Of a DNA stretch of 64,000 nt, positions 40,900 to 64,000 are shown one piece after another. The DNA comes from Psammoneis japonica (lineage: Eukaryota). The notes below the pieces were generated by a model. It made no database searches. It saw only the letters and a program-made list of their open reading frames with translations, and was not told the DNA's origin. Location: NCBI GenBank assembly GCA_008632985.1, contig QPGO01000048.1, positions 186,001 through 250,000 on the forward strand, in the 5' to 3' direction. Made by a program: the position numbers and the translations under genes. Every line of letters begins with the position of its first letter. The first letter of the stretch is position 1.

Positions 40900-42310
40900 T
40901 TGCACATGATGGGTGCATGACTGAATCCGTGGACTGAATCCTTGGATCGTCCTCGCCTGGAACTGCACACGGCAGAATCGCATGATCTTGTTGAGACACA
41001 ACATGCACCAGTTGATTTGTTGACGGTTCCCCTTGCGTTGACGGGCGCCATGGAACGATGGACAACTGCCAAGCACGAGAATTATGACAGACATGGACAC
41101 ATTTGGTTTGTGTCTGTGTAGGACTTGGAACTTCACCTGCTGCATCAAACAAGCGATGACTCAGAACTTCACCCACTGCATCTTACAACTGACCCAATTC
41201 ACCATGTGACTCAGATTGGGACACAAAGAATGTCCGACTCTTGAGATCTCACTTGCCCATGCTTGCACAAAAACTCTCTTGCAGCACCAATGTTCTGGAT
41301 GTGAAACAATTTTGGCTTCCACAACAACATTGTCTCACACATTTTTCATGCAAAATGCAAGCCTGAGTTTGAAAGTGATTTGTTGATTCTTGAACTCTTG
41401 GCCACAAATGTTCTGATGACATCCACCAATGTTCCAACAACAATCTTGGCTTCTGAAATGGCATCAACTCATCTTCTTTCAAAATGTGAGCCTGAGTTGT
41501 GCTGGCTGGGGTGAGAGAGTGGTGCAACAAGCACTGAATTCCCTTTTCCACACAGCCACAACTTCCAAATGCGAGCCTGAATTTGGCCTTTGTGACGAAG
41601 GTCTTCAAAGAGTCGTGGATAATCTGGTGAAAGCTTGAAGCAGTTCTCACAAACAGACTTGGCTTTCAAGAAATGGGAGCTGTGGAAGATTGTGTGAAGC
41701 CTGTGTGGGGGGGTTGTGTGACACACCTTGCTCTGTTGCACCAAAGATGGCACAATGCAGGCTGGCAAAGGGGGGGGCTCATGGCACCAGCAGCAGTGCC
41801 AAGGGTTTCCCAGCCAAAGAGAAAGGGTTGTGAAAGAATTGAAAGCAAAGATTAAGAGGCATCCATCAAGAGAAAGTGTCAACATCAAGCACCAGACACA
41901 AAGAAATCTGCGGGCATGTGTGCCTCAAAGAGAAATTGCCTGTTTTGACCATGCTGTCTCTCCAGAAAGGCAAAGATGGTGTTGGCACCACCCACAATGT
42001 GCAAGATTGGGTGATGAAGGGAGCTCAGGCTGCATGAACAACAGCGGGGTGGTTTTGGTGAGGTCGGAGGGAGATTTGGAAGTGGAAGCGATTTAGCTCG
42101 TGTGTCATTCAAATCATGACATTGCCCCTCGTGCCGTGCCTTAGCGGCGCCGCACCTCGAAATCATTGGCCCATTCGGGCGACGCCAGGAAACCAGCAAC
42201 CGAGAAGCGAGCCCGCAACCGACCCACTGCCCACGGCACGTTGCGATTTGCGATGAAGAAGAGCATGAAGACGCAAGACAAGCATCACGCAAGAAGCGCA
42301 ACAGCACAGC
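40900..42310. repeat. TpA-depleted degenerate domain 3
   Basis: Few TA and excess TG/CA. CG scarce in 41200-42000 but retained at both edges. No credible ORF. Confidence 0.55.
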
Positions 42311-42350
42311 GATAGGTCATACTGTACTCTAGAGAGCAGACGCACTCACC

Positions 42351-43295: not shown

Positions 43296-45123
43296 TTACC
43301 CAATCTGACTAAATTCAACATCCGACTTGATAACCTCTTCTCCGCGTCGCATTGCTACTACGGTTGGTCGATACACAACAAAGTTAAACTCGTCGCTGAA
43401 AGCACCGGGATTCAGAGCGTCGCATTCCGCATAAGTTTCGTAGAACTGTTCGACCCGATCCCCTAGAATGACAGCATCTGGAAATGGATATAGACGGAGG
43501 GCATGGTCATACTGCCAATAAATGGGACACGATGACAGCGGTAGCGGGCACAAATGACTTTGATCCAAGATGGTCTTCACAGCGTGCTGCACAAACGCGT
43601 CACCATTGCCTGCATCACGCGGTTTCAAGATGCAATTTCGCCGTAGCTTATGAATTAGATTCTGACGAAAGAAAACAAGTTCCTTGGTGAAGTAACGGAT
43701 ACGACATGGGTTGGTGGTGAACAAGGCATTCTGCACCTTTGTGTGGATTGATCCTCGAAAGTAAGTCGGTATCGGTGGACGTGGAAGGATCTCTCCCGTC
43801 CCTGGATCGTTTGGACCTGGAACGAAGACAAAGCGTCCGTCATTGGCAAGACGAGGAAACTTGGAAATCAGGGTGGCAAGCTCGTCAAAGTATCCAATCA
43901 TGGTCTTGGTGCCGTCCCGAGCAGATGACATGGGCGTCGAAGAGAAGTTTCCCATAAAGACAAAGGCTGGAAGTGGATCTAGTTCATGGTATCCTTGAAA
44001 GAGTACTTCCAACTTTTCCATAACGCTGGGGTTGTCAAGATGGACGTCCGACAAAACCACAAACATCCCATCTGGACCATGTTTCAACTCTTGTTGACTC
44101 ATTTTTTCAATCTCAGACATGGAGGAGATGGATTGGAACAAATCACTGTTAAGTAGGCCAATAGCATCAATAGCCTCGGATCGCTTTTCGATGAGCGGGT
44201 TTCCCATTCGATGAACATGCAGAACCCCGTCCACCATTTCACCCTCCACTAACATGATGCAGTTCTCGGCAATGAATCCGTCCGTCAAGACTGACGTCTC
44301 GGAAAGGTCCATTGGTACCTGAGCTGTATGATCCTCGAGATAGTAACGCCCTTCTTCCACCTGGTGTTCCAGTCGGAATTCGGTACGTGAGGCGAGGCAC
44401 TGCAAAAACCGACTTTCCGTAGCACAAGAGAAATTGTGTGGTGGCCTTACCTGAACAATCATACCGAGCAAGAACTTGACGCCACTCACACCCAAAAGAC
44501 TTTCCAATGGAGTGATGGTATGGGTCACGCTTCTTCCGTCCCCAGATGCATGTCTCCCATCCGCTGTAACTAGTTTTGGGCAGAACAAGTCCTGTCTAAG
44601 AATTCGTTGCTGAATGAGCGAGTGTCGCTGTGCAAACATATCCGCCTAAATAGCAATAAAAAGAGGATCGTGAGGAAGCGTATCATACTTTGGAAGAAGA
44701 CTTTTATCGAAGAGCAACCCATTCACATACCTTGTCTGACGCTTCGCCAAACAGAGAACGGCGCTCCATATCCTTCGACACGAGTGTGAATTGCTTTCTG
44801 GTGTCGTCATAAGCAATCCGAGGCGTATCAAAGGCGTCAAGGAGCTGCAGTGCCTCATCTGCAACATCACTGTCACTACGACTCATCTCCGCCACGACAT
44901 CGGCCAACACCTTTTTGGTAACGAGAAACTGTTGACGAGACGACGCCAGCATTCGTTCGCGGATTTCGTCAACAATTGCTTCAAGCACTTGTTCGCCACG
45001 TTCTGGAGACTCGCGACTCAACACGTTCATCATTCCATCCAGAGCAGAGGCTTGAAGGGATAAACCCCTCAACTTGAAGGCTCGTGCAACCTTACGGCGG
45101 CTGTGATGAGACGACTCCGCCAT
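43296..45123 (-). CDS. POLE2: DNA polymerase epsilon subunit 2 (Dpb2), multi-exon
   Basis: AFKLRGLSL N-terminal domain; FVVLSDVHLD, FVFMGNF, FVFVPGPNDPG, TNPCRIRYFTKELVFFR, QSHLCPLP, YDHALRLYPFPD. Introns near 44645-44730 and 44362-44450. Confidence 0.95.
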
Positions 45124-45252
45124 GGTCTCTATCAAACTCATTTTCAATTTTGTGTTTGAGAGCACAGTTGCGTTGGGCTCTCGTGAGGGCAATAGCTGGC
45201 GGATTATCTCAACGGCAGATTCTGTACTGAATTCTACGTGGCTTTTGCCTCA

Positions 45253-45317
45253 TTTTTGGCGCGAACCGTTAAAGTGCGCGAAACAGCGCGAAATAGGAGA
45301 ACCCGGAAATTTCGCGA
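45253..45317. promoter_or_regulatory. Cluster of E2F-consensus sites in the POLE2/METTL16 divergent promoter
   Basis: TTTGGCGC at 45255-45262; GCGCGAAA (reverse complement TTTCGCGC) at 45276-45283 and 45286-45293; TTTCGCG at ~45310. Confidence 0.55.
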
Positions 45318-45595
45318 GCAGGTCGAAGCGCGCGGTCGAAGTCGAAACAAATTTTCAATTTTCGCATCTTGCTTCCTGGCGGGGGACGGGGGACGTCTCC
45401 ATCAAAACGTTGCTACAATCGATTGATTGGTTTGGTTGCTGTCAGACGTACTATTCATTATACTCTCTAGCAAGTTCAAGTCTCCCTCTTCCTAGCGAGA
45501 GAAGTTCTAAAGTCGAGGAAAAAGGATTCTCAATCAGGTTACACGCACGTCAGAATTCAAAGCAGCATACGGTACTTGGTCGAAGGAAGTACAGT

Positions 45596-47279
45596 ATGTC
45601 CGAAGCTGCTTCGAGCGTTTCGACTCAAAAGAATGGAGATCAAAGTTGTGATCGTTCAAGGAAGAGGAAGCGCCGACTCGATCCGTTTGATTTCCATGTT
45701 AGTTTTGAAGAGCTATCAACTCGATACCCCGACTTTGAGAAAGAGTATCGAAAGCTTTCCCGCGCACAGCAGTCTTCTGGCAAGTCTTTCTCTACTCTCG
45801 TTACACAGGATTTCAACATAGCCTTAACTCGAGCTTTGCTTCGTGACAACTTCGATTTGTCCATGACGAGGTTGCCTTCTGATCGACTGTGTCCTCCCGT
45901 GCCGAATCGTTATGCCTACGTACACTGGATTAAGGACAAACTGCTGCCGATGCTGCAACGTGATGATTATTTTCAAGAGGAAACATCACTTACACACTGT
46001 GGCATCGACATTGGTACAGGAGCTAGTTGTATTTATCCGCTTCTGTTTTGTGCGTCAGAGCCTGCAGAGTCCACGTCAACGACATGGAAGATCGTCGCCA
46101 CTGATGTCGACCCAGAATCAGTTAGTCATGCTCAGATGAACGTTGCTGCAAACAACTTGAGTGATTGCATTCATGTGGCTTTAGTAGAGCCAACAAATTC
46201 TACATCAAACAAAGGACCTGTTGCTCGATCCTTCGAGGTTGCAGCTAGCAGTGCCTTTTTGCAGTGTGCCGATGGTTCAAGCTCTCCAAGTACCTTTGAT
46301 TTCGTCATGACGAATCCGCCCTTTTATGACGACGAGCACAGCACGGAAAGGACTGATCCACGGGTAGGGGATGATAGGAGTCGAATTCCCATGTCTTCAA
46401 ATGAAGGCAGTTATCCTGGTGGGGAGGTTGGATTCGTCCTGGACATGCTGCGTGATAGCTTGGTCTTTCAACGCAAAGTTTCCTGGTACACCGCAATGTT
46501 TGGAAAGAAGGCGTCATTTCTCAAGGTCAGAGAGTTGCTATTTCAGCTTCTGGGGACAAGCTGCGTTCAAGAAACAGAAGTTACTTCTGGCCAGATGACT
46601 AGATGGTTCCTTGCATGGACGTTCATGAGACCGCGGATAAGATCCCCAGGTAAGATGGTTGGCAGAGCATATCGACGAAATTTCATCCTCTCTCTTTCCA
46701 TATGTGCCTTCTCATCTTGAACAATTGCTGTCTTTTGTAGCTGCAAGAATTAAAAGTGCTTTACAACGATTCGAGGTCCATCTCGAAGCACCTACCGAGT
46801 CTGACGCTATCGCTGAAGTCGCTGAGCGCATACGGGTATATTGCGACTCGATGTCCCTTTTGAATGAAGTATGCAGTGTTACGTTGAATGTGAATTGTCC
46901 AGAAAAAGCTGTCGTCACGGTCTGCGAGAAAAATCCTCCGGCATACACGCTGAATTTAGATGATATAGAGACTGCAAAACCAATACCTCAACGAGTGTCC
47001 CGAGGTATGTGCCAAACTTGGAACGTTCATGACTTCCTTCCCATAGAAGGCCACTTTGTGGTGGACTTTGCAATCTGTTCCTCCAACACTAGAAATTTAG
47101 GCTCGGCAAAGTCAACTGACGGAAACAAGGGAGCCACAGTTTCTGTCAGCCTCGATTGTTACCGTCACTCGGTCCGAGGAGGCAGGTTTGTTGAAAAAAT
47201 CCGCCGGCTTGAAGGTGAGGTTTGCAGAACAAATCGAAAATGGCGCCGATTCCAGAAACAAAGAGGAAAGACGGGCTGA
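45596..47279 (+). CDS. METTL16: RNA N6-adenosine methyltransferase METTL16/RlmF family; intron ~46650-46740
   Basis: RLCPPVPNRYAY, GIDIGTGASCIYPLL, FVMTNPPFY, GGEVGFV, WYTAMFGKK, TRWFLAWTF. C-terminal RTNRKWRR. Confidence 0.9.
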
Positions 47280-47355: not shown

Positions 47356-48609
47356 TCATTGATTAGCCGGTAAGGGATGATATAGCTTCCGAATGTCCTT
47401 AACAAATTGCTTTGCGCCCTTAACGCCGACTTTTGACGCCAGGACGATGGGGACAGATGGCGAATGAACGTGCGTTACCGCTGTTAAGAGGCTTGCATCG
47501 GGATCGCCATTGGGTGCGGGTTGAATTAAGTTAACCCCCAGCAAAATCTCGTTGCGAGTCAAAGATTCTTCTGCTTCGGTTGGTCCGCCCCACGTATCTC
47601 CTCCGACCGCCCTACTCACAACTAGATATCCACCACCCTCAACCCCATCGTCCAGGCGAAGGGGGCGAGCATGCATCATCGTCACGAATTCCATTTTCTG
47701 TTTGGTAAGAGGGGGCTTGGTAAGGTTTCGTACAATCTTGGTCTCGCCGTCCCCAAAGTCCCCTCCAGTTGAATCCAACCCCTCTTGCATGACGTGGATG
47801 TCTGTGCGACCTAGGCTCATGTGGTTGTACTTTTGAACACGTGACGAATCCATCAAGAGTTCTGCTAGCTCTTGTGGTGATAGTGGAAGGATAGAGCGTG
47901 TCTTTACTACCGGGAGCTGAGAACCATACCCCTCTTTATGAAATTTTCCCAGATATGCCAGTATTTCTCCATTGTCCAGTGCTTCTGCTTTATCCATTTC
48001 ACTCCCCACGGACGCAGTGCGCTTGTCAGCTGGTTCCCAGTCAACCCACTGGTTATTCGAATGCTCCATAGCAACATCTACACAAGTCGAGGAGAACAAG
48101 TTGAGCGCTTGGGGTTCGTCGAACTCACGTCCTGTCAATTGATTCCAAACATCGGTAGGTATCAACGGCTTTGCAATGCCCTCCAAGAGTTCATTTGGTG
48201 GTATTTTTCCTATGGTTTCCGCTGAGTCAGTCTGTGGTGATGTAGGCGAAGAGAGAAATGATGAGTCTGAGGCTTGTGTTTTTGCTTGTCTGCGAAAAGA
48301 TCGCAGGGTATACATTTGCTTGCTTGCCCTGGTAGTGCCTAGCCGCCCTGATATTGTGAGTTCCTCCACTGGTGAAGCCCAACTAGATATGTCAAGATCA
48401 TCATTAGTGGTCTCTGCCGGCTTCCCTTCGTCTTCTGGAATAATTTTCACTGTCAGATCATTTGCTAGATCGAGAGAAACTCGTGCGAAAGTGACATGAT
48501 CTCTAGAACCATCCATTCCAGAGCTGCGACTTGGCGAAACAGTCCAAAGAGCACTCCCTGTACGACAAAAGAAGATAAATGGTATGCACTTGAACTGCGG
48601 TCGCATCAT
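47356..48609 (-). CDS. START/SRPBCC-like lipid-binding domain protein
   Basis: LSPQELAELLMDSSRVQKYN, TKIVRNLTKPP, EFVTMMHAR, GYLVVSRAV, NEILLGVNLI, LTAVTHVHSP pattern. Start taken at MMRPQF. Confidence 0.68.
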   Translation of the reverse strand: MMRPQFKCIPFIFFCRTGSALWTVSPSRSSGMDGSRDHVTFARVSLDLANDLTVKIIPEDEGKPAETTNDDLDISSWASPVEELTISGRLGTTRASKQMYTLRSFRRQAKTQASDSSFLSSPTSPQTDSAETIGKIPPNELLEGIAKPLIPTDVWNQLTGREFDEPQALNLFSSTCVDVAMEHSNNQWVDWEPADKRTASVGSEMDKAEALDNGEILAYLGKFHKEGYGSQLPVVKTRSILPLSPQELAELLMDSSRVQKYNHMSLGRTDIHVMQEGLDSTGGDFGDGETKIVRNLTKPPLTKQKMEFVTMMHARPLRLDDGVEGGGYLVVSRAVGGDTWGGPTEAEESLTRNEILLGVNLIQPAPNGDPDASLLTAVTHVHSPSVPIVLASKVGVKGAKQFVKDIRKLYHPLPANQ

Positions 48610-49528
48610 GATATCTTCCAGGTCTGTTATCCGTGCGAAGGACAAAAGGTGTTGCCGTAAAGAATAGTGATTGTTCGGAACCGATTGCAAAGCTTTTCTA
48701 ACAGTACTACAGGCGAGGTTAGGAAGCGAAGGATTGCTCGTTGCAACTGTTGCAGTGATTTCCAGGTTGCTTTGCGTCCAATAAAAACGACACCATGGCC
48801 TTCCGCCTTTATTTCGCGCAAAGCATGCCCGAACCCCGAACCCCGCACCCCGCCCGAACCAACAACAATGAGCCGCGCAGCTTCCGCAACAGAGTGGCAT
48901 TTGACGGCGTGAGAACCCTGACAGCACAATGACAACATTGTTCGATCGATCGTGCTCTTTCTCATGATGACGTGTCAACATTCAGATGGCCTCCAATGTG
49001 GCTGGCTGTGCTGTGGCGATGAACTGCACGAAACCAAACAACGCCATTTTGTTTGGGCCGGGGCGAGAAGCACGAGAGCCATGATGGTGACATCACAATT
49101 GCCAAATGGGTTGGGAATTCTGCCAAGGTCATTCGCACTCAGTCATGTCTGCTGTTTTGTGAAAAGGAGCCCATGCTGGAAGAAGTTTGCTGCAAGTTTT
49201 TTGCACCAGCAGCCTTTCTGCAAACAAGAGAAGCGGGTTGCAGAGAGGCTCGAAGATGCAGCGATGGCAAACAAACAGTCACTCAGTTGCTTCAAGCTGT
49301 TGAAGCAATGCATGCACTGAGCTGGATTTGGCACTGCTGGATTTGGTGTTGCTGGATTTGGGTGAAGAAGGAGTGTGATGTCTGGCTGAACAATTCCCGA
49401 AAATCATGACGCGGCAGCAGAAGATGTGTGCTCCTCAACGTGATGACAGAGCAGAGCAGGAGACAAGGCTGACAAAGGACAAACTTTGGGCTTTGCTGCA
49501 ATTTTTTGAATTGGACAAGAACAACATC

Positions 49529-49766
49529 AGCTGAGATGCAGTCCTGCAGCGTGGCAGGGTGGATGTGACCTCAGAGGTTGGCAGCAACGTCAGCGGCAAC
49601 AGAGCAAGCAAACAGACGCTTTGTTCAAAGTCGTTGTCTGGAAATCACGACGAAAGTTCGTTGTTGTTTTTGAATCGGATTGTGAGTTCAGCTGAACAAA
49701 TCAATGAAAAGAGCTGAGTTTGGGATGCAGTCGTGACGTGCAACCAAATGACATTAAGTCGTGACT
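49529..49766 (-). repeat. 3' LTR of the copia element
   Basis: Aligns to 55396-55611. Immediately preceded on the minus strand by the polypurine tract GAGAGGGAG (plus 49767-49775). Confidence 0.9.
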
Positions 49767-52700
49767 CTCCCTCTCAACCGAGAGAGCGCACCAGCCTGTG
49801 AGAGCCTTTCCAGCTGTGCGGAGCGCATCGGTCTGTGGTCCCTTCGTGAGCTGATCGGCCAGTTGCTCTAGAGTGCTGACAGGTTGAATGTTGATCTCCA
49901 ATTGTTTGACATCAGTCCAAAACCAGTGGTGTGGGACACTGATGTGCTTGGTTCATGGAGACAACTTGGGCATGTGATGTGTGCAAACTTGAGGCATGCG
50001 GAGTTGTCTTCGCACACAACGGACACAGGTGGGACATTCTGCTCACAAAAGCACTTCAGAGACTGCTTGAGACCATGCAGTCCTTTCAGCAACCTGAGAA
50101 CCATGTTGAGTCCTGATTTTGGTGTGAAACCTTTGGGTGGTGACATGCAGACTTTCTTTGGCAACATCTGCTTGGCAAAAGGCTGCAGCACAGTCTGCTT
50201 GACATGCTTTCCATCCTTCTTTCAATGCTGCAGTGAGCATGAGTTGGATGCTGGACCACTGCACTGCCGGCGCATGGGCTTCAAAATGATCCACACCTTC
50301 TTTCTGCAGATCTCCTTGGACACAGCACCGGGCCTCACATTTCAATGGCGTTCCGTCTGGTGACCTTTTGAGCTTAAAAGCCCATGCACTGGGGAGCACA
50401 TTCATCTTCAGAGTGCATTTAACTGCTTTCCAGGCACGATGGTGGATGAGTGCATTCACTTCAATTTTCATTGCCTTGATCCACTTTTCTGCATCTGGGC
50501 CCTTCAGAGCATTGTGCAATGAAGGCATGTGGGGGTTCTTGGCATTCTTGGTTGCCGCATGAGCCCTGGGATCACCAATGTTGCATGTGCCAGCATCCAC
50601 ATTGGTCTTGAGAGTTGCCAGATGAGCTGGTTGAGCTTGGTGTCCAATTGGCACCTCTTCTTCCTTGATGGAGCTAAGGCAGACTTTGTCTGTAAACTTG
50701 GTAGAATGGAGCTGTCCTTTGGTTGACCTGGAAGACCATTGCAGCCCCAATTCTCCCTCTGAATTTGTCACAGGAGGCGCTTCAACTGGAGCAGGTGCTG
50801 TTGGTTTGGAAGGTGCTTCAGGTGGCAGAAGTTCATTGCTTTCCTGAGGTGGAGGTGCCTGAATTGGCACAGGCTCTACAGAGTCTGCACTGTCTTTAGT
50901 TGCAGGTGGGGCTGGAGGCACAGGCATTGCAGTCATGGGCGTGACTCGATTTGATGCATCTTCGAAAGGAACAACTGGATCCGGCGCAGATGTTGATGGA
51001 TTTGGTTGGAAGTTGCCTCAAACACGAGTCTCTCTGGCCAGTTCTTGTTCCTCACATTGGCGTTCAGAAGGAGCGAGCCACTCATTGTTCAGATGGACAG
51101 TCTGATCTTTCTCCAATGGGATGAGAATGGACTGGTTGAGACAGAGTTGCTCCCAGTGGTCGGGTGCATCCGTCTCCCTCTCGATCAATGGTGCGGCAGA
51201 GAATTGATTGTCAAAAACCACATGATGCTGAGGAGCAACGCTTCCAGTTTGTAAATTGAGGACCAGGGGTGCCTCACTTGAGTGGCTTGCACTCAAACCA
51301 ACAAAAAGAGCATGGTGAGTGCGAGGTTGCCATCAAAAGGCAGTTTCTTCCTGGGTGCAAGGACCGGGTCAAGGACATGCGCTGGACAACCCCACACACG
51401 AATGTCTTGCAACCAATGTCGAGGCACCATGGAGCTGGTGAAAATGTCTGCTGGGCAATGCCCTTTGTTGGCATTGGGGGTGATGTTGTAGATGTGCACA
51501 GCATGAGAAACAGCCATGGGCCATGGTGAGCTGTTGACCCCCCCTTCCAGTGGATTGATGCATGAAGTGTCACACGCTTGTTTTGCTTGAATCGTCTCCA
51601 CAGCAGAGAAACCCAGTTGATGTTTGACATGGAGGCAGCCGGAGGTGTGGTTGACAAAGATGCACCCTCCCTTGAATTGCTTGAATGTGGCTTTGCTGCA
51701 TGAGTCAAAGGTTTGGCCAAGCAGGCGCAACTCAAAATGATCAATGCTGACAGCCTGAACCAGTCGTTTTTGGTCAGCTTGGAGGGCCCCATCACGTTCA
51801 GGGACTGTCTTCTTGTGGGTGGAGCCCAGAGATTGTCTGTGACCTTTGGCATGTTTGCATGCTTTGCATCTTGGGTGGTCACACTTCGCCGCTGCCTTGA
51901 ACCAATTTGACAAGAAAGGAACCACGCAAAGAAGGGCTTGTGTGCAACCAAAGTTCAAATGACCAAATCTGGAGTGCATGTTCACTGAAAGTTTCTGACC
52001 CGCTGTCAGATTCTGATTTTCCTTGTTCAGGATAATTGGGTTCACTTGAGGAGCCTCAGATGCGCCCTTGATCATTGACACAACAGGCAAGTGGCTTGGT
52101 TGATGATGCGGCATGCCCAACTTGCCTGCTCCGTCAATGCACAACTTGAAACTGTGCTTGTCCCCCTCATGCTTCCCATGCACACCTTTCTCTTTGTCAA
52201 AGAGGCATTGAGGTGACAGCAGGCATTGACGGGCTCCAGGGAGGATGTGGCATGCCACAGTGTTCAATTGGGTGGTGGCACTGCTTGGTGTTGTGAAAAC
52301 CCATGCAACCAGGCCAGCACCTTGTGTGGTGAGACCATTTGCTGTCCCATTGATCTGCAAGGGTTTCTTGGGAATGGTCACAGGGCCAGCAAAATTGGCT
52401 TCATTGGGAGCAACAGCTAGCATGACACCAGCATCCATCACTGCAGCCAGAGTCTTGTCCAACAGACCAATGAGCGCCTGCGGATCGGATGCTGACAGCT
52501 TGGCTTGAGATGCTCCGGCAAGCAACTGAATGGTTGATGTGTTGCAGACAATTGCTCCAACACATGCTTCTTCCAACAGAGCAAAAGGATCTTGAGAACG
52601 AGTGGCATCCATGACGTGATGAGGGATGCAAAGTTCGTCGAACTGAAAGAAGTCTGGACTGAACTGCTTGAGAGCGTCAAAGAAGCATTTCTGCTCGTCG

Positions 52701-55383
52701 AGAGGTTCCAATTCCTTGCAGGCATCAAAGAAGGTTGATTCATCAATCGAATCTGACTGTTCAACTGGACGGCGCATGACAAACTTGGCGAGCACTTGCA
52801 CGCCCTTGATCTTGTTGCATTCGAACAGTGAGCAGGCATCCAACACAATCCAGTCATCTGACTCCTCCACAATGTGGTGGACTTGAGAGCCAGCTGTCGA
52901 AAATTGGCTTGATGCGTTTGTGAACGGATGCTTGGGCTGTTGACAGGCACAAACTGCTGACCACACCACAACTGCAACAGACAGGACCATCCAGGAGGCC
53001 GGAAACCCGTGCAAGGTTGAGAGTTTGTGCTGGCAACACAGAGCTTGAGGGATGCTTGGGATTGGAGCAAAGCAGACATGTGGCACCATTGCCCAAAACA
53101 TGGCGGCGAGCCAGAACACGAAGAGCTTGACTCATCCCAAAATTGATCAACGCAAAGAGGTCTCTTCTTTGTCGTGCTTGTGACAATCATCCACACCCAG
53201 GTTCTCTGGATCATAAAAATCAAAGCCACAATGTGCAACACATGGAGGCAAGTCATCACATGCATCTTCAAAGTGTGGTTCATGTTCAAGAAGGAGCGGA
53301 GATCCAACTTGGCATCATCTGACAGCATGTCCATCAGGTTGACAGGAGCATCACAGAACTCATCTGGGTGCTTGTCAGAGTGCAGCTTCAAGGCCGGGAA
53401 CAACTCAACAACTGGTGGTTGGTTCTCAAACGCAGAGAGAGCATCAGCACATTCGCAGAAGTCATTGGTGTCCTCAGGAGTGATGGTCTCAACCACGATT
53501 GGAGACACATTTGGGCCCACAACTGAGTGAGTGTTTTGTGAGCTCAATTCCATGCATGCTTTGTCAAAGCTGACTTCCTTGTTGTTGTCTCTCCCTCTTG
53601 GCCAAAGGTGCTGGAGCAACAAATGCTGTTGCAGCAACAGGGGCAGTGAGGAAATCTGGGTTGGCAACAGCATCTGTGGCCGCGCACCACATCCCTGTGA
53701 AAACCAACACGTTTGGGTTGGATTTGTCTCCCTCTGGTTCCTTGGCAGTCTGAGCTGGCAGACCCATGGGCACACTGCCATCTGGATCAGAGACTTGGGA
53801 CAAAGTGCTTGCTGGGGTTTCCTGGGTGGGGTGCTTGAAGTTCTCCTTGTGCTCTGCAGTGGAGTGACGTTTGGCAGATGCCCAGCTTGTTGGCTCCCTT
53901 TGCCATGCATGTGGCACACCACTTCCATTCCTTGCCATTCTCACCCGTGGTCATCTCCCCATTAAACTTGGTGCGCCATGCAGTGATTTGTTGCTGCTTC
54001 TTCTTGGAAGGGTCATCTCTGCAGGTGGTGGATTTGGAGGAGGATCACCACGTGGCAGTGGCGGGTTACACTTTGGGCACATCTTCTTGGTGCACCCCTC
54101 AAGACCACAACTAAAACAGTGCGCCATCTTCCCAGGGTCATCCGTGGATGAAAGGTTGCTCTCGGGCAGCTTGGCAACCAATGCAGGCCACTCACTGTCC
54201 TTCACCACAAGCTCGTTGTGCTGCTCTTGGATCCATGCAATGATGCCGACCGGTCCGAGTGTGTTGCAGTCTCTGTCAGTCTTGATTGCAGCGGGATCCT
54301 GCCTTGAGCCTGTGCTTGCATTCCATCTTCTTCACATTGTCAATCTTGTTGTGGATGACCCGATTGAAGCAATCAGAAGACGTGCTGGATGCCTTGTGGA
54401 GCAGCTTGGAGCCAGTGTTTGTTGGAAGCACGCAGTTGGTCTGCATCACCTTCACAATGCAAAGTGCTTCAGTGGCGAAGTCCATGCAATCCTTGCTGGC
54501 ACAGGCAGCCAAACTGAGATCCTCTGGCTCCTTCTTTGCTGTCTCAACATCCGTTAGAGTGCCAGCATTGCAAGCATCAAGTGCCATCATGAATGGAGTT
54601 GACCCAGGAGGGCAGTCTTGGAAGTCCTTGAGATGGTTGAACTTGGTTTCGATTTTCTTGCAAAAGGTGTTCGAGATTCTAGAGTGTGCCAGAAGCTGAG
54701 AGAGATGTCATCAAGCTTGATCTCATCGTAGCATGTGTCATCCCCAGCCACGTTCCTGGTGTTGTGCTCATTCACAAGATTGGTCACGGTGAAATCATGG
54801 AGATGATCAAAAAGACATGGAACCTTGCTGTTGCTGTTCTTGACATGGCAGAAAGTCTGCTGGCCGTGGGCTTCAACTGGGTCTCAAACAGTCTTGACGA
54901 AATGGTCCTTGTCAAGCTCGTTGATGGGACCGTTTGAAATCTCAAGTCAACTGTTGAACTTGGAAGTCATTGTGGAAGTTTGTTGATCTCGGAGGGATCA
55001 TTCTGTCGAGTCGAGAGCCTTGGGATGACGGTGCTGCAAGGCAAATTGGCAGGTTCTTGATGAGGTTTGGGTGCAGGCATTGTTGAGTTTGGAGCCACCA
55101 ATGCAGACCCTGTGGGTCTGGTGAATTCCACCGCGCAACGGCATGGTTTGAGTTGGAGGAGCGTTCTTGGTGGCATTTGCAGCCATTGCATTGGCAAACG
55201 CCTTTGCCAGGACATCCAAATTGACAGCAGTTGTGGTGGAGAGTGCAGTGGGGAAGGTTCTTGATGGCATGAAGACAAGAGAAGCAAGTGAGTCTCAGCT
55301 GTTTCCTGGGTTTGCTTCAAAATCAAAACAGAAAGTGTCTGTGATGATGACTCAGTCAGGAGCTCTCGTCAATGCACAAGCTT

Positions 55384-55395
55384 GGGCTCACAACC
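55384..55395 (-). promoter_or_regulatory. Primer-binding site complementary to the anticodon arm of initiator tRNA-Met (half-tRNA priming), one TA->TG change
   Basis: Minus strand GGTTGTGAGCCC versus expected GGTTATGAGCCC (compare Drosophila copia GGTTATGGGCCC). Confidence 0.8.
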
Positions 55396-55611
55396 AGTCA
55401 AGATGCAGTCCCGCAGCTTGGCAGGGTGGGTGAGACCTCAGAGGTTGGCAGCAACATGAACAGCAACAGAGCAAACAGATGCTTTGTTCAAAGTCGTTGT
55501 CCAAAAATCACGACAAAGTTCAGATTGTGAGTTCAGCTGAACAAATCGATGAAAAGAGCTGAGTCTGGGATGCAGTCATGACATGCAACCAAATGATGTT
55601 GAGTCGTGACT
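55396..55611 (-). repeat. 5' LTR of the copia element
   Basis: Aligns to 49529-49766. Terminal inverted repeat AGTCA...TGACT. Followed directly by the PBS. Confidence 0.9.
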
Positions 55612-56734
55612 GCATCTCTGGGCTCCTCAAAACAGTCAGAGTCACAACAGCAAATTTTTGGCAGAGCAAGAGCTTTTCTTGACCCAGCCACATGCTGTCC
55701 AAAATGTCAACAACAGCCGTTTCTCACAAAGCTTGTGCCAGCTCAACAGATTTTGGTGGTTCTGAGAACAGATGGGAGAACAAAGGACACCAATTTCTTG
55801 CAAGGCAACTGAGTGTAAAGCTTTGCCAGTTGTTTTGTGCATGTGAACAAGATCCACCAGTCACTGTGTGCCAGTGGAGCGAGCGGGACAACTGCACTCA
55901 TGATTTGTGTTTGCAGCTGTGTTTGTGCTGCATGCCAGCTCAATGCTCAGTGGGCATTGGTTCTTCACATGGACATGACATGAACCTCTTCCAGCTTTGA
56001 GCTGTGATTTGCCAATTGGTTTGGAAAATGAAAATGAAAACCTTGGCAGTGCCCACATGTTGGCTGAACTTGGACATGCACGGCCCAGAAAGCTGTTCCC
56101 AAATTGCCAACAGGGAAAAGTGCCAAGAGGCTCAGTGTTGATGTGAGCCTCATCTTTGCTCAAAAACCTGTGTGGTGCATTTCTTGACAAGTGCAATGGC
56201 ATCCCTTCATGAGGGCAACACATGTGGAGGTGAGCAAATGTTTGTGTGCCTGCCTCCCAGCCGGCCATCACATCTGAGTGGTGCCCCATGTCAGCAGATT
56301 GAATGTCATCAGCACATGTCAGATTGAGGCTTTCTGCTGTCATGTGGCTTTCAAAATGCATCAACAGATTTTAAAGCTTTCTGACATCATGCAACCCATG
56401 TGACACATGTTGTCATTCTAAAAACATTGTTCACAAGTCCTCACCATCTTTGAATCATCCAAGTTAATTGTGCGCTGGAAAGCTGTTGTTCATTGCTGTG
56501 ACAGTCTTGTTCTTGGTGGCCACAAGTTGATGATGTCATGTTGCACTCATCAAGACATGCACAGCTCCCAATGCTGCACAAACAACAACAGCACTTTTTT
56601 CAAAGTTTGTGCTCTTGTTGTTTGATGACCATGAACCAAACTTGGAGCTGCAGTCTTGATGTTCTGCCTCATCTCCTGTCCCAGTGGGCTTGCTGGGCTT
56701 GCAGCAGTCACAACAGCCACAGCAGACCAATTGA

Positions 56735-57295
56735 GATGCTGGACCCCAATCTGCATCCCTTCAGCATGACAGCAAAAAGAGCAAAAAATGTTTCCATGAT
56801 GACAGAACAAAAGGAACAAACTCACAATGTGAACAGCACTTGTGCTGGCATTTTCAGCCTTGCTGCACAGTCATTCTTTCAGCACAGCTGCTCAAGGAGT
56901 GGGGGCTGTTTTAATGAAGACATGACAACAACAAACACAGAGTGTGAGCAGTGCTTGCAGCAGCTTCCTCAGTCCATTTGGATGACACTTTCTTGCTTGA
57001 TTGGCCTTTTGATCCTCTTGTGCATCCTTCCAGCACAACAACTTAAGAGACAAGAAACATTTCAACAATGACAAAAAAAGCAAAACCCACAACATGAACA
57101 TTGCTTCCATCAGCATTTTTGGCTCCTTGTGCTGCCCCTTTCAACAACTCATTCAATTGGTTGGCCCTTTGATTCTCTTGTGCACTCTTTCAGCATGACA
57201 GCACAAGGAGCAAAAAATGTTTCAATGACAACAAAAAACAACAACAGCAAAACTTGCAATGTGAGCAGTGCTTGCATTGGCATTTTCAGCTCCTT
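56735..57295 (+). repeat. Degenerate tandem array, ~140-160 bp unit
   Basis: ttcagcatgacagca...gagcaaaaaatgttt...ggcattttcagc at ~56760-56858 and ~57189-57289, with partial copies near 56880 and 57000-57120. Confidence 0.65.
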
Positions 57296-57499
57296 CATTT
57301 TCACAAAGACAAAACAACACATCAACAAACATGCAATGTGTGGGCAGCACTCATGCCCGGCAATTCATTCTTGTTGTCTTTGGGTTGAGACTGCTTGAGA
57401 CACAACTGCATCTCCTTTTTGCTTCATTGACATTGCCGAGTGATTGGGGGAGCCTTGCTGCAGCATCAAGATGCGCGCCATTCTGGTTGTTCTGATTTT

Positions 57500-60400
57500 C
57501 TTGCAGAACTGCCATCAAGGAGCACATTTGTCCCACCCTTTTTTGTGTGTGCATCCACAACACCTCCTGTCAAAATGACTTCAAGCTGTCAATGACTGAC
57601 TTGGCATTTGAAATGATGACATCTGTTTTTGTCTTGTTTGCACATCCAAACTGCACACCACTGCCCTTCTCCATCTCCAAATCATCCACCAGCACCATGG
57701 CATCATTGTGTCATTGTCAATGCTGCTCTCTTTGAAGACATTCTCTGTTGTTGCACATGCTGCCATTGCAGGCTCCAAGCGGGCAAGATTTTGTGCAATG
57801 CTCTGCATGGCCACCTCCAACATGTCCCACAATGCCCACCAGGATGTCACCAAATTTGCCTCATGGTGCCATGCCCATGTTGCAACACTGCTTGCAAATG
57901 TTGTCTTGGATTTCCAAATGGCTCACTTGTGTCCTTTCTCTTCCATTTGTCATCCATCTCCTTCACAGTCTTTTCATGCTGCATCTTCTGCTTGGCTGCC
58001 ATGGCCCGGGCTTCTGGAAAACCTGTGGGGGACTGTTCCCTTCCAGAAAACTCTGCTGCCTTCTTTGTCAGCTCCCCAGGATCCTTGAGAGGTTTTGCTG
58101 CAGAGCTTGAAAGACAACCTGGCTCAGAAAACAAGTTCATGTGCAGGTTCACCCAGCCACTCCTGTGCTGCTGTCAAGATGAGAAAGTGTTGGTTGTGCA
58201 TGGGGTTGAAGCACCACCTGTTTGGTGAGCCACATTCAACACATCTGTCACAATCTGTTGCAAGCCTTTGACAACCTGTGCAATGAACCTCCCAGTGAAG
58301 ATCATTTTCTTGACCATGCTCACTCTGCTTGGGTGTGCAAGATCAAGGCCACCCCACAAGTGGTGCCAAACAAACCCTGCTTCACATTCACAGGTGAACA
58401 TTTGTTTGACAATTGCCCTCTTCTGAACAGCAATCCCTGCATCAAGAGGGGCTTCACATCTGCTTCTGTCAATTTCTGAAGCACGAAGCAATGGTCCAAG
58501 CATCTCAATTCATGAGGAAGCAAGGTCTTGTTCTTTCATCTGCCAATGAGGAAACTGTGAGTCCATCCACACCAGCAACAGACCTCTGGATTTTTAGCAG
58601 AGCCATCACAGCCAGTTTTGGAACTGTGGTGCTGCCCACTCTCTTCTCACTGAGACCACAAAACACATGCTGGCAGGGTGATTGTGAAAGAGGGGCTCCC
58701 AGTCTCATTGACTTCTGCTGAAATGCCTCTTTCTTCATCAAGTGACACCTTCAGCACCAGTCAAGACCTCACCCTTTCATCATCTCCTGATGCAACTGCA
58801 CTGCCTGATGATGATCTGACCATGCCATGCATCAATCAGGGGAGGGCACAGATGAACCTCAAGTCACTCCAGTTTGGAGCACAAAGGCAAAACTCTGCAG
58901 CAACGTCATGCACATCCACAGGCATGTGCCGGTGGTTGAACCCAGCATGGCATCTCATGCCCCATGAATCAGCACACAAATCCTCAATGCTCTCACTTGC
59001 AAGAGAAAGGCAAGCAAGCTGTGGTGCTGACACAGACTGCACAGGAGAGTGCAACAATGAGCACTTGGAGTGAAAAGCTGGACACCTGCATTGTTTCCGT
59101 CAATGGCAAACATGTTTTTGCCCAGGAAGAAGTGACAGATCAACTTCAAGGAGTTTGCAATCATGGCAGGGTGCATTTTGACATTGAAGTTGTGAGCTGT
59201 GATGAGGAGTGTGGGTTGAGCACAATTTGGTTTGCTCCCCCCTCCCTCTGACACTGATGAGCACCACATTCAGGAGCTCACTCAGGTGGATGTTTGCGCC
59301 ATCATGGAGATCCGACACCCTGACACTGATTTTTCAGCTCTTGACTGACCCACCAATTTTGCACCATTGAATGTTTGTCATGAAAATGGCATGGTGAATT
59401 TATTTGCCATCTCTTCTCATGTGCTGTTGCTCCAGAAGAATGTGTGCTGGATGCCTTCAGACATGGCTCTTCACTCAATGAGCTTGACATGATGCCAGAA
59501 TGACATGCTGGCGAGGTCAAGCAACTCATTCAGCATGATGAACTTGACATGTTTGGCATGCCCATCAAGTGGCCAAAGGGCACCACAATTTTGTGTCCAC
59601 ATTGGCAGCATCACCTCCAGCAGGATGGCACTCAACAGCAGTCATGCAAATGCTGCAATTGCTCTCCTTGAGCTCACCTGCCTTCCATGCACTCATCTTG
59701 TGTGGAACAACCCATCTGATGGATGTTTTTTGCTCTTGCAACAATGACAAGCTGCAGCATTTGCAACGGTGACACTCAAGTTGCACGCGCGCACCTCCTG
59801 AGCCCCTCCAATCCCCAGCTTGTGTTGCTGTTGATGATGCATGTGCTGCTTGTCACAAGTCTCACTTTTGGAGTTGACCCAGACCACTCTTTGGTCTTGC
59901 CAATGCTGCAAGCACTTTAAAGACAACCCAAAGCTGGCATGCTGTGGGAGAAACATGGCAACAAGATGCTCGTGGATGCCAAGCTCTTGTTTTGCAACAC
60001 CGCTCACAACCCACAACAAATGTGCATTCATTCTGCAACCTGCAAAAGGAAGAAGATTCTGCTCTTGCACACCAGGTTGATGACTTCTCCACTGCATCTC
60101 CAGTGGAAGCTCTTGTGGCAAAGATTTTTGACACTGTTGGTCAAGCTTTGCAATTGCCTGGCAAAGCCATGCTGCCTTTCAAGTGTTTTGGGTCTGTTGC
60201 ACTGAATTTGATGGTGTGGACATGCACCAGCCAACATGATCATTTGATCAGTGTTGCTTGTCACAGCTGTGTCAATTGGGTTTTGTGGCAATGCACAGTT
60301 GGGAGACACCAGCTGTGGATGAACCAACATCAGAATCCATTCCTGGCAGATTCAGTGTCTAAGTTGCACTCTGAAGTTGGTTGCCTTGAAGGCACTCCAG

Positions 60401-61000
60401 AGCAGGATGAACTTGCACAGGTCTCCAGCTTCAGCTGTTGCACCCAGCTTGGCAAGTTGTTGTGCACACATGCCCCATGTTGTCTTGACATCAGATTTGC
60501 CATTGCCACCCGCTGTCTCCAAGTTTGCCTCAGCTCTGGCTTCTGCTGCACATTGCTCTGCGTTGAAAGGTGGAGCAAAACATTTGCACTGAACCAAGAT
60601 GTGGAAAATCAACCACAAGAAGCCAATGCAGCAAAGTGGAGCCAATCACCACCTCCATGACCCCACGAACATCTTTGCCAAAGACCCTGCTTTGCCAACA
60701 TTCCCACCTTGGATTGTTCCTGTCAGCTGCTTGCCTTCTTGGGTGTGGCCTGTGGAAATGATTTGTGCAATTGCTGGTCTGCTGAAAAGCATGGATGCAC
60801 ATTGGTGGGTGCCGTGACATTGCTTTTCAATGCAAGACCCAGTCCATGACTGACAATTTTGTGCTGTTGGCAATGCTGTCAAGCATGCTCTGCATCTGCA
60901 CCATGTTCTTTGCAAGTTGGAGGGCCCTTGGGAGGGGCCCATCCTGTTTTTTGTTGTTGACAATGAATCTGCACCCAAGATTCTCAACAACCGCACCCCT
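57500..61000 (+). mobile_element. Second, older Ty1/copia remnant (RT with QVDD motif), heavily mutated
   Basis: 59700-60700 translates as VLPMLQAL, GMLWEKH, ILLL/HQVDDF, LQLPG..PFKC.G, EGTPEQ, FSCCTQLGKLLC...DIRFAIAT, a recognisable CoDi RT with Y->C/H and R->C/H/Q. Outer limits uncertain. Confidence 0.72.
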
Positions 61001-61851
61001 CTGCTGAGTGCTCATGACACACTGACATTCAATTTTTTGCAACCCAGGATTGGAAAGAGGCCAGCAAGATTGCCACATGACATGTTCCTGGTGTTGTCAA
61101 CCCAAGCCATGACTTCACCAAGGCTTTGGGGTGGGCACTGCATGCCAGGCATGCATGCCAAATGATGGGATTACGCCGCTGTTGAGACATTTTGTTCATG
61201 ACTGTGGTGCCTCTGCAATGTTGCCCTTTGTTGTTTTGTGTTTTTGGTTTGACATCATTTTTGTCATTTGGTCTGATTGCATGTCATCATCTTCATGTGA
61301 CCTGCAGTGTCTTGAGCCAAACATTGCAGATGAGGGATGAGTGGTGTCAGCACCTCTCACCCCCAGGTGTGTGCACTGCATGTGTTCAGATGGTCCACAT
61401 CCATGGACAGCAGGTTATGTTGGACCTCATTTACACAGCACTGTACAGGCAGATGTTGCGTTGGCTGAACAGGCCTCAATGTGACATTCCAGCCCCATTG
61501 GTGGGGCATCTCGAAACAGTGTAACAAGAAAGGCAGTTGCAGTTCACAAGGCACAGACTAACGATGATTTTGATTTGAAGGTTGAGCTACAAAAGCACCT
61601 CGAGACACAAAAGAGAGAGCTGACGAAGCAGTAAGAGAGGAGGTTGGCAAGGTTGTGGGTGGCACAAAGGGGAACAACATTGGACTATGTCAGTGGGTCT
61701 CCCAATAAAGCTTTTTTTTATTGAAGAAGAGCCAAACATATTTGACTATGTCCAACTCATGTTATCTACATCTTTAGCTAGCCCTAAGTACCAATTGCTG
61801 CACAAAGCACCTCGACAAAAGGAAATTGAACCTTAACCTACACTTCATGTT

Positions 61852-64000
61852 CTATTTTTTCACAAGCTTGTACATTCCGTCTGGGCCGCATTCGATCTTC
61901 TCTTGTTTGCACAGCTGCTTAAGAAAAACGGTCAACTGGTGTGGTGTCTTATTGTACTTGTGGTCTGAACCTGCCACAAATGTTTTGAGGTTGTTGTGAA
62001 TGCGATCCAACGGGAGTTGCTCTAACCGATTGAGCATGCCGATAATGTACGACTCGTAAATCTCCATTTCTTCTTCTTCCTGAGCGCCAGCTGAGACTGC
62101 TTGCCCCACAGAACCATCTTCCTCATCCATTGCACTGCCCAGTTCGTGCTTAGAATACCAATGATCCCTCGATCCAAGTGCGTAATGAACAGTACCAACC
62201 AACGCAGAATCCGTAGCTTTGATCACACGGTTGCTCACCCAGTAGTTCATCCGCCGTTGGATGATGTGCTCGGCAATGCCGGTTTCATTGGAAAGCTCTT
62301 GCGAAGTCCATTCATCCTTGTCTTCGAAATGGGAAATAAGAGTCGCCAAGAGCGGTGAGCACGAGAATTCTCGCGTTTCTACCACGGAACGTCCATCGGG
62401 TCCTTCCTCGACGACGTCGAGTTCCAATTGGACCGAACCCAACTGATTGAGCCAAACCAGCTTTCTTGGACTCTTAAGTTTCCCATACTCAAGACCAAAC
62501 TGATCCAATCCACTTTGAATCCGTGGGTGATGCTTGAGTTGCTCCTTCTGAAGCGCTGGCCAGAAAATATGGGAAATGATGATCGAATCCACCGGGAGCT
62601 CCTTGTCTGACTTCTGCTTTGCTTTGAGAGTGGAACGTATGTTGGAAACGATTCGTTTGGAGTCATCCGTATCCTTGATCATGATTTCACATTGGCGCAT
62701 ACTCATTTCACCAAATCGTAGCTTCAGCAGTTCCAATGTGTGAACCTCTCTATCCGTGTCGAAATCAAGGTTGGCTATGAGCTTATCGGCCAGCATCAGC
62801 CGATACTCATTTACGAACAGCTCCTTGCTTCCGTAAATGCTTACTAACATTGAGAGAATATCACCTCCACCTCCATGAGAACAGCGAGAATCACCCCTAT
62901 GTTTTAACAAGGAAGGAGCAGGCTTCCAATCAAAGGGAGGCGGTTCTCCCTCATCATCGGAATCCAACTCTACTTGTTCCAAGGGACGAGCATCCTGCCG
63001 CCGAAGTTCGTCGTAAAGAGTATCCCCAGCCTCTTCGTCCGTCAGGCTTGTGATGATACATCGAACTGTGTCACTGCGACCGCGTAGATATGATCGAACG
63101 GGTTGCGCCACCTTTTCAAGCAAGCGATCGGAGGGATCGATCTCACGCAGAACCTTTATTGTGTTGATATACACATCAATAATCTGTGACGTGTTGGCTC
63201 CGGGATGTAGTAAACGACGCATTAGGCTGTCTCGGAGGGCGTTACCCAATTGCTCATTCATTCTCGTTCTTTCCATCACTCGCCCAAGTTCCGTAATTGC
63301 ATTCACGGAATTGGGATAGTCAACCACGATATTAAAAATTTCTTCAATTCTCACGAGACAGAAGCATTCTGCGACACGATAGTCCAGCTGATCATGCCAA
63401 TTGTCTACTTTGTACGCATCAATTCCAACCAAGTCCTGCACCCATGGATCCTTTGCAACGAACACACACAAATTGAGGTCGAGCGAGTGTGGGTGAGTGT
63501 GTTGAAAAAGCTGCTATTTGGGGCATACTCTTTGGACTTACCACGACTTCATTCTTCCATTCCTCGACTGAAGCATACAACGAATCATCTTCGAATTCAC
63601 CTTGAATCTTTCCCCTCACATGCGATAGAATGGCTTCGTGCAAGGTCTCAAACAGAGGGCGAAGAAGCTTTCCGTCCTGTCCCATCCAGCCCAGAGTACG
63701 TAGACTCTGGTAAACCGAGTCCTCGTCGTCCAGCGGTTCTTCTTCCCTCTCTTCCTCCATTTCTTCATCGCTGTCATCAAACTTTGTCTGACGAGTTCGA
63801 AGCGTTGCACGAAAAAGAGGTCTGAAAGAATTTACAAAGCCTGGTGGAGCTGCTAAGAAAACTGCAGCGCTAATGGCTAAACGACGAGACTCGTCCGTTG
63901 AATATTCCGCAACACCAGTGCCATCCGCATTCTAGAGAAAACAAAACAATGGTTTAGAGCAGCATCAGTCACCCCGCAGCAACGTTGTCTTTAAATTTCA
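61852..64000 (-). CDS. ANAPC2: Anaphase-promoting complex subunit 2 (cullin-like), 5' end outside the window
   Basis: RRLLHPGANTSQIIDVYINTIKVLREIDPS, YLRGRSDTVRCII, LVSIYGSKELFVNEYRLMLADKL, LELLKLRFGE, C-terminal winged helix YIIGML...LDRIHNNLK. Confidence 0.94.

Follow-up and report, generated by a model that had tools for sequence, protein, structure and literature searches.

In a 64,000-nucleotide stretch of the Psammoneis japonica genome (assembly GCA_008632985.1, contig QPGO01000048.1, positions 186,001 to 250,000 of the forward strand; hereafter the window), a copia-like retrotransposon at positions 49529-55611 was found to be nearly devoid of the dinucleotide TpA. We consider it likely that this element lies in silenced mobile or foreign DNA that is subject to a locus-restricted hypermutation of TpA, acting on both strands at the DNA level, and to a separate decay of CpG. 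In this scheme the copia element and three other blocks of the window would have been rewritten by two processes. The first would convert TpA to TpG or CpA, an A:T to G:C change that can hit either strand of the palindromic TpA step, and the second would be the ordinary decay of methylated cytosine that converts CpG to TpG or CpA. By analogy, and as part of the same reading, the TpA process would be of the kind that has been seen arising de novo in the chlorarachniophyte Bigelowiella natans.

The depletion was quantified against 500 mononucleotide shuffles of positions 49529-55611. The element carries 20 TpA where 369 ± 14.9 were expected (z = -23, the lowest shuffle holding 313) and 139 CpG where 388 were expected, with 696 TpG (expected 431) and 596 CpA (expected 331). 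The corresponding observed/expected ratios (O/E) are 0.054 for TpA, 0.359 for CpG, 1.61 for TpG and 1.80 for CpA, and a deficit of about 598 TpA and CpG is set against a surplus of about 530 TpG and CpA. The initial annotation of this DNA, made from its letters alone, had described the pattern for positions 49529-55611; these are depleted as described, but the depletion reaches further, over a 12.6-kb block within which the copia element is nested (48811-61415; 31 TpA and 201 CpG in 12605 bases, with 1473 TpG and 1371 CpA) and over three more blocks. These are a TpA-free, CpG-poor block at 14825-22640 (13 TpA and 40 CpG in 7816 bases), a block at 1425-4620 in which depletion is less complete (18 TpA and 38 CpG in 3196 bases) and a small TpA-free block between two genes at 40892-42312 (7 TpA in 1421 bases). 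Together, the four blocks occupy about 25.0 kb of the 64 kb and have a TpA O/E of 0.03-0.11 and a CpG O/E of 0.11-0.43, compared with 0.48-0.60 and 0.79-1.05, respectively, in the gene regions between them. Judged by the positions of TpA, the edges of the 12.6-kb block are sharp to less than 50 bases: as far as 48810, successive TpA are a few tens of bases apart, and the following one is at 49755. The loss of TpA is confined to particular mobile or repeat regions and the host genes are spared.

To polarize the changes, ancestral residues were taken from two related polyproteins that a search had yielded, P0001 (2084 aa) and P0002 (2256 aa); these replaced the copia consensus used in the initial annotation. 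Both are intact, the element is collinear with them from gag through RNase H, and their Tyr content is ordinary (57/2084 and 67/2256 residues). At the 721 codons of the element where P0001 and P0002 agree, a conserved Tyr was kept in 1 case out of 22 (9 became His and 7 Cys), whereas all other residues were kept at 457 of 699 positions (Fisher p 6e-9). Conserved Thr was kept at 16 of 34 positions (12 Ala), Val at 23 of 40 (8 Ala), Ile at 9 of 22 (7 Val), Asp at 27 of 46 (12 Asn) and Arg at 14 of 43 (9 Gln, 5 His, 5 Cys, 2 Trp and 1 stop). The open reading frames (ORFs) tell the same story: counted from stop to stop, the frame at 50043-51017 (324 aa) has no Tyr, that at 51293-53131 (612 aa) has one and five others counted in the element have none. 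The Tyr-free and Tyr-poor frames of 297 and 608 aa reported initially, which are presumably the ATG-started forms of the first two, are thereby recovered. All six motif changes quoted at that time are present when set against the two relatives. LYGLKQ/LYGLRQ became LHGLKQ (CAT at 50075-50077), GVDYFETYSPV/GVDFFETYAPV became GVDHFEAHAPA, KSTW/KGTW became PSAW (AGT GCA), the protease motif FDTGA became MDAGV (GAT GCT within 52424-52438), CPVY[IV]LDP became CPAHVLDP and SGY[MI]H became SGCLH. The change of YHWFR to HHWFW is a further case.

The copia element differs from its relatives at 263 of the 721 columns, and the difference corresponds to a single unambiguous base change at 171 of them (at 14 it is ambiguous, and at 78 at least two steps are required). 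Among these 171 changes, 35 are A>G, and the base 5' of the changed A is T in 23 cases (p 2e-6), A in 6, G in 4 and C in 2. A further 28 are T>C, 23 of them followed by A (p 4e-10); 44 are G>A, 37 of them preceded by C; 19 are C>T, 13 of them followed by G; and 45 are transversions. Every one of the context excesses is significant with respect to base composition, with p ranging from 1e-4 to 7e-17. In terms of base pairs, 46 of the 63 inferred A:T>G:C changes fall at TpA, 23 on each strand, and 50 of the 63 inferred G:C>A:T changes fall at CpG. Two processes, TpA>TpG/CpA and CpG>TpG/CpA, are present in the element. The directional conversion of TpA on both strands, the preference of A>G for a 5' T, which had been set as a check, and the accompanying ordinary CpG decay that the initial annotation had put forward were thus borne out.

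The TpA process is independent of CpG decay. At 5 of the 8 block edges, the TpA-free zone exceeds the CpG-poor core by about 150-300 bases, leaving strips with no or almost no TpA and a normal CpG content (1425-1607, 4290-4617, 40892-41076, 42045-42312 and 48811-49073). Relatives from outside the window separate the two processes further. Among 150 representatives related to the 612-aa frame, with a median Tyr content of 2.65%, three are Tyr-poor: P0142 (0/267), P0207 (2/774) and P0233 (1/2061). The last of these (source label 'ena', contig of 8476 bases) is an uninterrupted copia polyprotein frame of 2061 aa with a single Tyr, in which YVDD reads CVDD although the Arg content is normal. Scored at the columns on which 9 or more of 11 relatives agree, P0233 has lost all 28 conserved Tyr (18 to Cys and 10 to His), whereas Arg is retained at 37 of 44 positions and its replacements at the others include no Gln, His, Cys or Trp. 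P0233 comes close to TpA conversion in pure form. It indicates that the process can go to its end while the sequence hardly changes otherwise, and that CpG decay is not required for it. A search of 114 further P0233 relatives (median Tyr 2.8%) yielded one that is partly depleted, P0321 (12 Tyr in 1352 residues); it is partly converted, Tyr being retained at 3 of 17 positions and Arg at 28 of 30, and three intact controls keep 8/8, 3/3 and 24/27 of their conserved Tyr. Related loci on metagenome contigs have a TpA O/E of 0.44-0.82 in 22 cases out of 23. The sole exception, L019 (1516 bases, encoding a related integrase), has a TpA O/E of 0.04 and a CpG O/E of 0.05; its tallies at conserved columns closely match those of P0207. 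The marks carried by P0233, P0321 and L019 indicate that the TpA process occurs elsewhere.

Survival of TpA depended on the flanking bases, as calculated on the assumption that TpA was originally as dense in the blocks as in the rest of the window, and similarly flanked. The tetranucleotide VTAB (V, any base except T; B, any base except A) was found 14 times in the blocks where 593 were expected (2.4% survival), TpA with one T- or -A flank 40 times where 343 were expected (11.7%) and TTAA 15 times where 37 were expected (40%). At least one T- or -A flank is present at 55 of the 69 surviving TpA, and the trend is found in all four blocks. The process has a wider context preference, in which VTAB is lost and TTAA spared. 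As a single flanking A:T pair protects both strands, these data suggest that a symmetric four-base word is read by the TpA process.

The conversion of TpA to TpG or CpA cannot create stop codons, and it removes TAA and TAG. In the six frames together, TAA and TAG amount to 5.1 per kb in the copia element compared with 37.2 per kb in the gene region, and because of their removal 41 ORFs of at least 80 aa are found in the 8 kb from 48500 to 56500. The proteins of the element would therefore lose their function through wholesale substitution of residues (Tyr>His/Cys, Thr>Ala, Ile>Val and Val>Ala) while long frames are left standing. In such TpA-free regions gene finders would call long phantom proteins devoid of Tyr.

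Regarding the chemistry, we propose that adenine in DNA would be deaminated enzymatically to hypoxanthine, which is read as G, and that the candidate enzyme would be a deaminase of the TadA/ADAT2 type that is drawn to the locus by its silenced state. The natural tRNA substrate of such enzymes is A34 preceded by U33. A different chemistry, which we regard as unlikely although it is the best of the alternatives, would be a mutagenic thymine modification, such as 5-hydroxymethyluracil or a mark like base J, that is placed at TpA where repeats are silenced, mispairs with G and yields T>C. Such a T>C change at TpA is indistinguishable from A>G on the opposite strand. Moreover, in dinoflagellates, likewise members of the SAR group (Stramenopila, Alveolata, Rhizaria), repeats are enriched for 5-hydroxymethyluracil loci, which have a role in the silencing of transposons, according to passages of a study that also cites older work in which T was preferentially replaced in TA and TC (PMC11572971). 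In the copia element, however, TpC is unaffected (O/E 1.08), and 2 of the 28 T>C changes have a 3' C. ApA is not depleted either (O/E 1.13), and the intact state of both dinucleotides argues against a dinoflagellate-like thymine mark on TA and TC as well as against the WA mutagenesis of Pol eta (W, A or T).

Another possibility is that the changes arose by editing of RNA or cDNA during retrotransposition, with a logic like that of APOBEC or ADAR, so that copies arrive already free of TpA. This is improbable, but it draws on the data about the timing of TpA loss. The two LTRs (long terminal repeats) of the element differ at 23 of 211 aligned positions: 9 differences are of CpG type, 2 are CA/TG doublets and 1 is TA/TG, the remainder being 5 other transitions, 4 transversions and 2 extra doublet positions. 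Editing before insertion would account for this low count of TpA-type differences (one clear and two ambiguous) next to the nine of CpG type. It would also fit with the public run X1, whose contigs (up to 315 kb) hold 0.90 of the sampled words of the stretch. In X1 the summed contig depth over parts of the copia element is 400-1900 compared with about 62 for unique DNA, which indicates a large number of related copies. The variants listed for these copies occupy 31 places, of which 17 are of CpG type and 1 is TA/CA and lies outside the block. None of the 31 is a CA/TG doublet or a place where the window has CA or TG and the others TA.

Against RNA or cDNA editing stands the strand symmetry of the changes (23/23 at TpA, and 9 Tyr>His compared with 7 Tyr>Cys), since editing of an RNA intermediate gives one strand; in the pooled counts, Tyr>Cys and Tyr>His were 35 and 23 (p 0.15). 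About 19 kb of blocks that carry no retroelement signal are equally TpA-free. In addition, the four units (about 150 bases each) of a degenerate array at 56740-57330 alternate between CA and TG at the same dinucleotide positions: CA/TG accounts for 28 of 112 adjacent double differences, the next class for 7, and 14 dinucleotide columns hold both CA and TG. This alternation suggests that palindromic TA or CG was resolved independently in each unit after the DNA had been duplicated. Finally, the targets in B. natans are integrated DNA viruses that mutate in place, according to the passages of the preprint considered below.

Several of these observations also weigh against the in-place hypermutation of DNA that we favor. 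In the LTR pair, one clear TA/TG difference and two CA/TG doublets stand against nine differences of CpG type, and by a rough calculation CpG decay alone could explain the doublets. In the tandem array, TA and CG ancestors of the alternating positions are indistinguishable. At face value, the absence of TpA is common to the X1 copies and their differences stem from CpG decay at a later time, so that TpA loss would have come before multiplication; the evidence leans towards TpA loss having preceded the multiplication of this copy or of its high-copy relatives. The variant pattern is a weak misfit to a simple picture in which each insertion is mutated in place, weak because the X1 contig table hides variants near contig ends. 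Two further reservations are that the deaminase is at this point a candidate only and that the B. natans process is described in an unreviewed preprint.

Selection offers a third alternative, in which mobile DNA is purged of TpA because something reads or cuts words that contain it. The non-random context of the surviving TpA and the TpA-free state that related copies seem to share would both be expected, and still we regard this explanation as very improbable. Replacement has affected 21 of 22 conserved Tyr, including motif residues of the protease, integrase and reverse transcriptase, and the frameshifts, the stop and the 300-codon deletion of the element are incompatible with selection on a working element; moreover, the non-coding blocks are equally depleted.

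An artefact of basecalling or polishing at modified bases of the assembly, which the initial annotation had raised as an alternative, appears more improbable still. Both depleted dinucleotides are plausible sites of modification, and the library type of X1 is not recorded; X1 may come from the same sample as the assembly and even be its source data, which lessens its value as a control for our reading. Nevertheless, the X1 contigs reproduce the bases of the window. Word depth is about 55-70 over the unique parts, positions 50649-54421 are matched with 0-1 differences per piece and the contigs that match 55562-61708 show 4 differences. Contigs of up to 315 kb at a depth of about 60 and with 0-4 differences per piece would not be obtained from noisy long reads. 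They behave like accurate reads, which leave modified bases unconverted, and the bases of the window are thus probably real. The same signature is found independently in P0233, P0321 and the metagenome locus L019, and real decay (frameshifts and a deletion) accompanies the changes. Least probable of all is Pol eta-type error-prone patch repair, a candidate of the initial annotation, acting at WA motifs in heterochromatin and expected to produce A>G at TA and AA alike, as Pol eta does at WA in immunoglobulin hypermutation, since A>G changes have a 5' A in 6 of 35 cases compared with a 5' T in 23 of 35, ApA is at an O/E of 1.13 and transversions are few (45/171).

From its sequence, the segment 49529-55611 can be assigned to the Ty1/copia LTR retrotransposons, on the minus strand, given an RVT_2 domain, the gene order gag, protease, integrase, reverse transcriptase and RNase H, and a pair of LTRs. 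The 3' LTR (49529-49766, minus strand) forms a direct repeat with 55396/55401-55611 and a purine-rich tract lies just internal to it; the 5' LTR (55396-55611, minus strand) has an inner end that is uncertain by a few bases. Between them, and all on the minus strand, a gag-like region with frameshifts (53603-55156) was recovered as tblastn pieces (P0001 residues 42-528, P0002 residues 1-446), and it is followed by the 612-aa open frame with protease and integrase (51293-53131; P0001 residues 622-1126, 35% identity), in which the Pfam match to gag_pre-integrs is weak and under the cut-off; the P0001 and P0002 polyproteins carry PF07727 and PF13976. The integrase C-terminus, a linker and the N-terminal part of the reverse transcriptase, without any Tyr, occupy 50043-51332 (P0001 residues 1260-1705). 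This segment scores 45.8 bits for RVT_2 (cut-off 31.6) and contains an in-frame stop at 51018-51020 and, near 51300-51330, a frameshift with respect to the 612-aa frame. A remnant of the RNase H C-terminus together with a deletion junction lies at 49791-50046 (P0001 residues 2007-2084 align to 50029-49791); P0001 residues 1705 and 2007 abut near 50029-50046, so that about 300 codons have been deleted internally and the reverse transcriptase is now linked directly to the end of RNase H. The copia element is dead and internally deleted, and it is nested in a block that is probably a transposon graveyard.

The target-site duplication of the element is tentative, with the CATC core that the two sides share as its secure part. 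A possible 5-base duplication is ACATC (49524-49528) and GCATC (55612-55616). The last T of the LTR and the duplicated A would form a TpA only after insertion, and if the boundaries of the duplication are right, the A/G difference is a change of TpA to TpG made in place. In one X1 contig (depth 46), 49521 is followed by TG and then by 55617, the whole copia element being skipped; this joint gave no clean empty site under the target-duplication models tried and may represent another copy of the outer sequence, either a paralog or an allele.

The other blocks gave few clues to their origin. In a Pfam scan of 37 ORFs of at least 110 aa in the non-copia blocks, none was above the curated cut-off; for the block at 14825-22640 no credible match was found in 15 ORFs, for that at 1425-4620 there was none, and in the 12.6-kb block no Pfam domains were found outside copia. 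By self-BLAST the non-copia blocks show no mutual similarity within the window, and the third block (1425-4620) has no convincing terminal repeats. A short (CCCGAAC) repeat of 3.6 units (48828-48852) lies exactly at the left edge of the 12.6-kb block. Run X2, from the same sample as X1 and of a kind that can only be guessed, covers only the genic flanks at 47500-48823 and 61761-62500, with no depth over 49003-61527; one X2 contig stops at 48823, some 12 bases past the last TpA (48810). If X2 consists of transcript data, the block would be silent and a gene would start at its edge.

Outside the blocks, the ORFs of the window belong to ordinary eukaryotic housekeeping genes, namely SF3B2, a TAF5-like WD40 protein, DNA polymerase epsilon subunit B and PAN3, along with a METTL16-type RNA methyltransferase and a MutS-like protein. 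In a search of a protein collection, the best named matches of the SF3B2 ORF were to Cylindrotheca, Mayamaea, Seminavis, Amphora and Nitzschia, at no more than 64% identity; the window is nuclear DNA of a pennate-type diatom. Pfam identified the METTL16-type gene as an N6-adenine RNA methyltransferase (45110-46720, plus strand; Methyltransf_10, 1.4e-46) and the MutS-like gene by its MutS domain V (24334-25827, minus strand). Both neighbors look like ordinary housekeeping genes without a visible link to the mutation pattern.

If TpA hypermutation is at work here, a mutational defense known from a single preprint on a rhizarian also operates in diatoms, a major group of phytoplankton that is tractable experimentally, and its occurrence in both a diatom and B. 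natans would argue for deep conservation or for convergence. The four-base context, with VTAB preferred and TTAA spared, constrains the enzyme, and a natural TpA-specific editor of DNA adenine would be of interest for base-editing work. As a practical matter, reverse-transcriptase and integrase ORFs devoid of Tyr provide a cheap search key in any protein database. More speculatively, and as a possibility that we hold tentatively, this may be an old enzymatic defense common to diatoms and chlorarachniophytes, and perhaps to the whole SAR group. Such a system would read the symmetric word VTAB in integrated DNA that has been silenced and turn the adenines of TpA into G until the word is gone, independently of 5-methylcytosine, faster than CpG decay and without making stops; it would be the first natural eukaryotic defense based on DNA adenine editing, and dead elements rendered 'immune' in this way may still multiply.

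Among known systems, repeat-induced point mutation (RIP) of fungi resembles the diatom case in being a dinucleotide-specific transition hypermutation of mobile or repeated DNA that inactivates it in place. RIP, however, is a C>T process directed mainly at CpA, which generates TpA as well as stop codons and reduces GC, whereas in the diatom TpA is destroyed, no stops are made and GC is unchanged. The indices used to detect ordinary RIP, for which a Rhizoctonia paper gives thresholds of at least 0.89 for TpA/ApT and at most 1.03 for (CpA+TpG)/(ApC+GpT) (PMC7884421), are inverted in the copia element at 0.061 and 1.86, respectively (0.69 and 1.18 in the gene region). The pattern is thus the reverse of RIP, as first described. 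It had also been called repeat-targeted, which holds insofar as the loss is confined to mobile and repeat DNA. A trigger by duplication, as in RIP, is unsupported for the diatom blocks: the non-copia blocks share no similarity within the window and the part at 56-61.5 kb has about single-copy word depth in X1. Deamination of 5-methylcytosine matches the second process, as inferred from sequence: G:C>A:T changes are concentrated at CpG and 22 of 43 conserved Arg became Gln, His, Cys, Trp or stop. By itself it cannot remove TpA.

The editing of retroelement RNA or cDNA by ADAR and APOBEC in animals shares the logic of deamination. These enzymes mark one strand before integration, whereas in the diatom both strands are affected, and so are stretches without any retroelement signal; A>G is not restricted to the sense strand as would be typical of ADAR, the two strands being equal. 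To our knowledge, ADARs occur only in animals. The preference of ADAR for a 5' U is cited in the B. natans preprint (Mettrop et al. 2026, bioRxiv 10.64898/2026.01.13.699255), from passages of which all statements on that species are taken here.

In mutation-accumulation lines of B. natans, 231 of 302 nuclear mutations fell within integrated nucleocytoplasmic large DNA virus (NCLDV) and virophage sequences, and 230 of these 231 were A>G or T>C, all at TpA. The regional rate was about 6e-7 per site per generation compared with 3.5e-10 elsewhere, an increase of about 1000-fold in the target region. TpA-depleted coding sequences were enriched in reverse transcriptase and DDE domains, and the authors propose an ADAT2-like DNA adenine deaminase. 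By our own arithmetic, if TpA makes up 3.3% of dinucleotides, a rate of 6e-7 per site corresponds to about 2e-5 per TpA per generation and, roughly, to a TpA half-life of about 4e4 generations. At this pace TpA could vanish before background change accumulates, which is how P0233 looks.

The likeness to the diatom case is extensive. In both, A>G and T>C occur almost exclusively at TpA and give TpG and CpA, and the changes are restricted to particular integrated or foreign regions that bear a footprint of low TpA and high CpA and TpG. In the window, the specificity for TpA, both of its products and the regional confinement with genes spared were all found. The initial suggestion of a system not yet described is accordingly superseded, the same signature having been seen de novo in B. 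natans. The two cases nevertheless differ in several respects. The lineages are distinct, a diatom (Stramenopila) and a chlorarachniophyte (Rhizaria), and the targets are an LTR retrotransposon and unidentifiable repeats in one and integrated NCLDV and virophage DNA in the other. The changes were seen to arise de novo in B. natans, whereas the diatom case is known from its footprint alone. The diatom blocks also show strong CpG decay, of which the text considered reports none for B. natans, and their depletion is near saturation (O/E 0.03-0.1) compared with a Rho of 0.45 in the NCLDV region. Neither diatoms nor the context of flanking bases are mentioned in the searched text of the preprint, and our full-text literature searches returned no report of TpA loss in diatom transposons. 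In conclusion, TpA hypermutation of this kind has already been described in B. natans, and its occurrence in a diatom, on a retrotransposon and near saturation, is new, as are the separability of TpA loss from CpG decay and the context preference that removes VTAB and spares TTAA.

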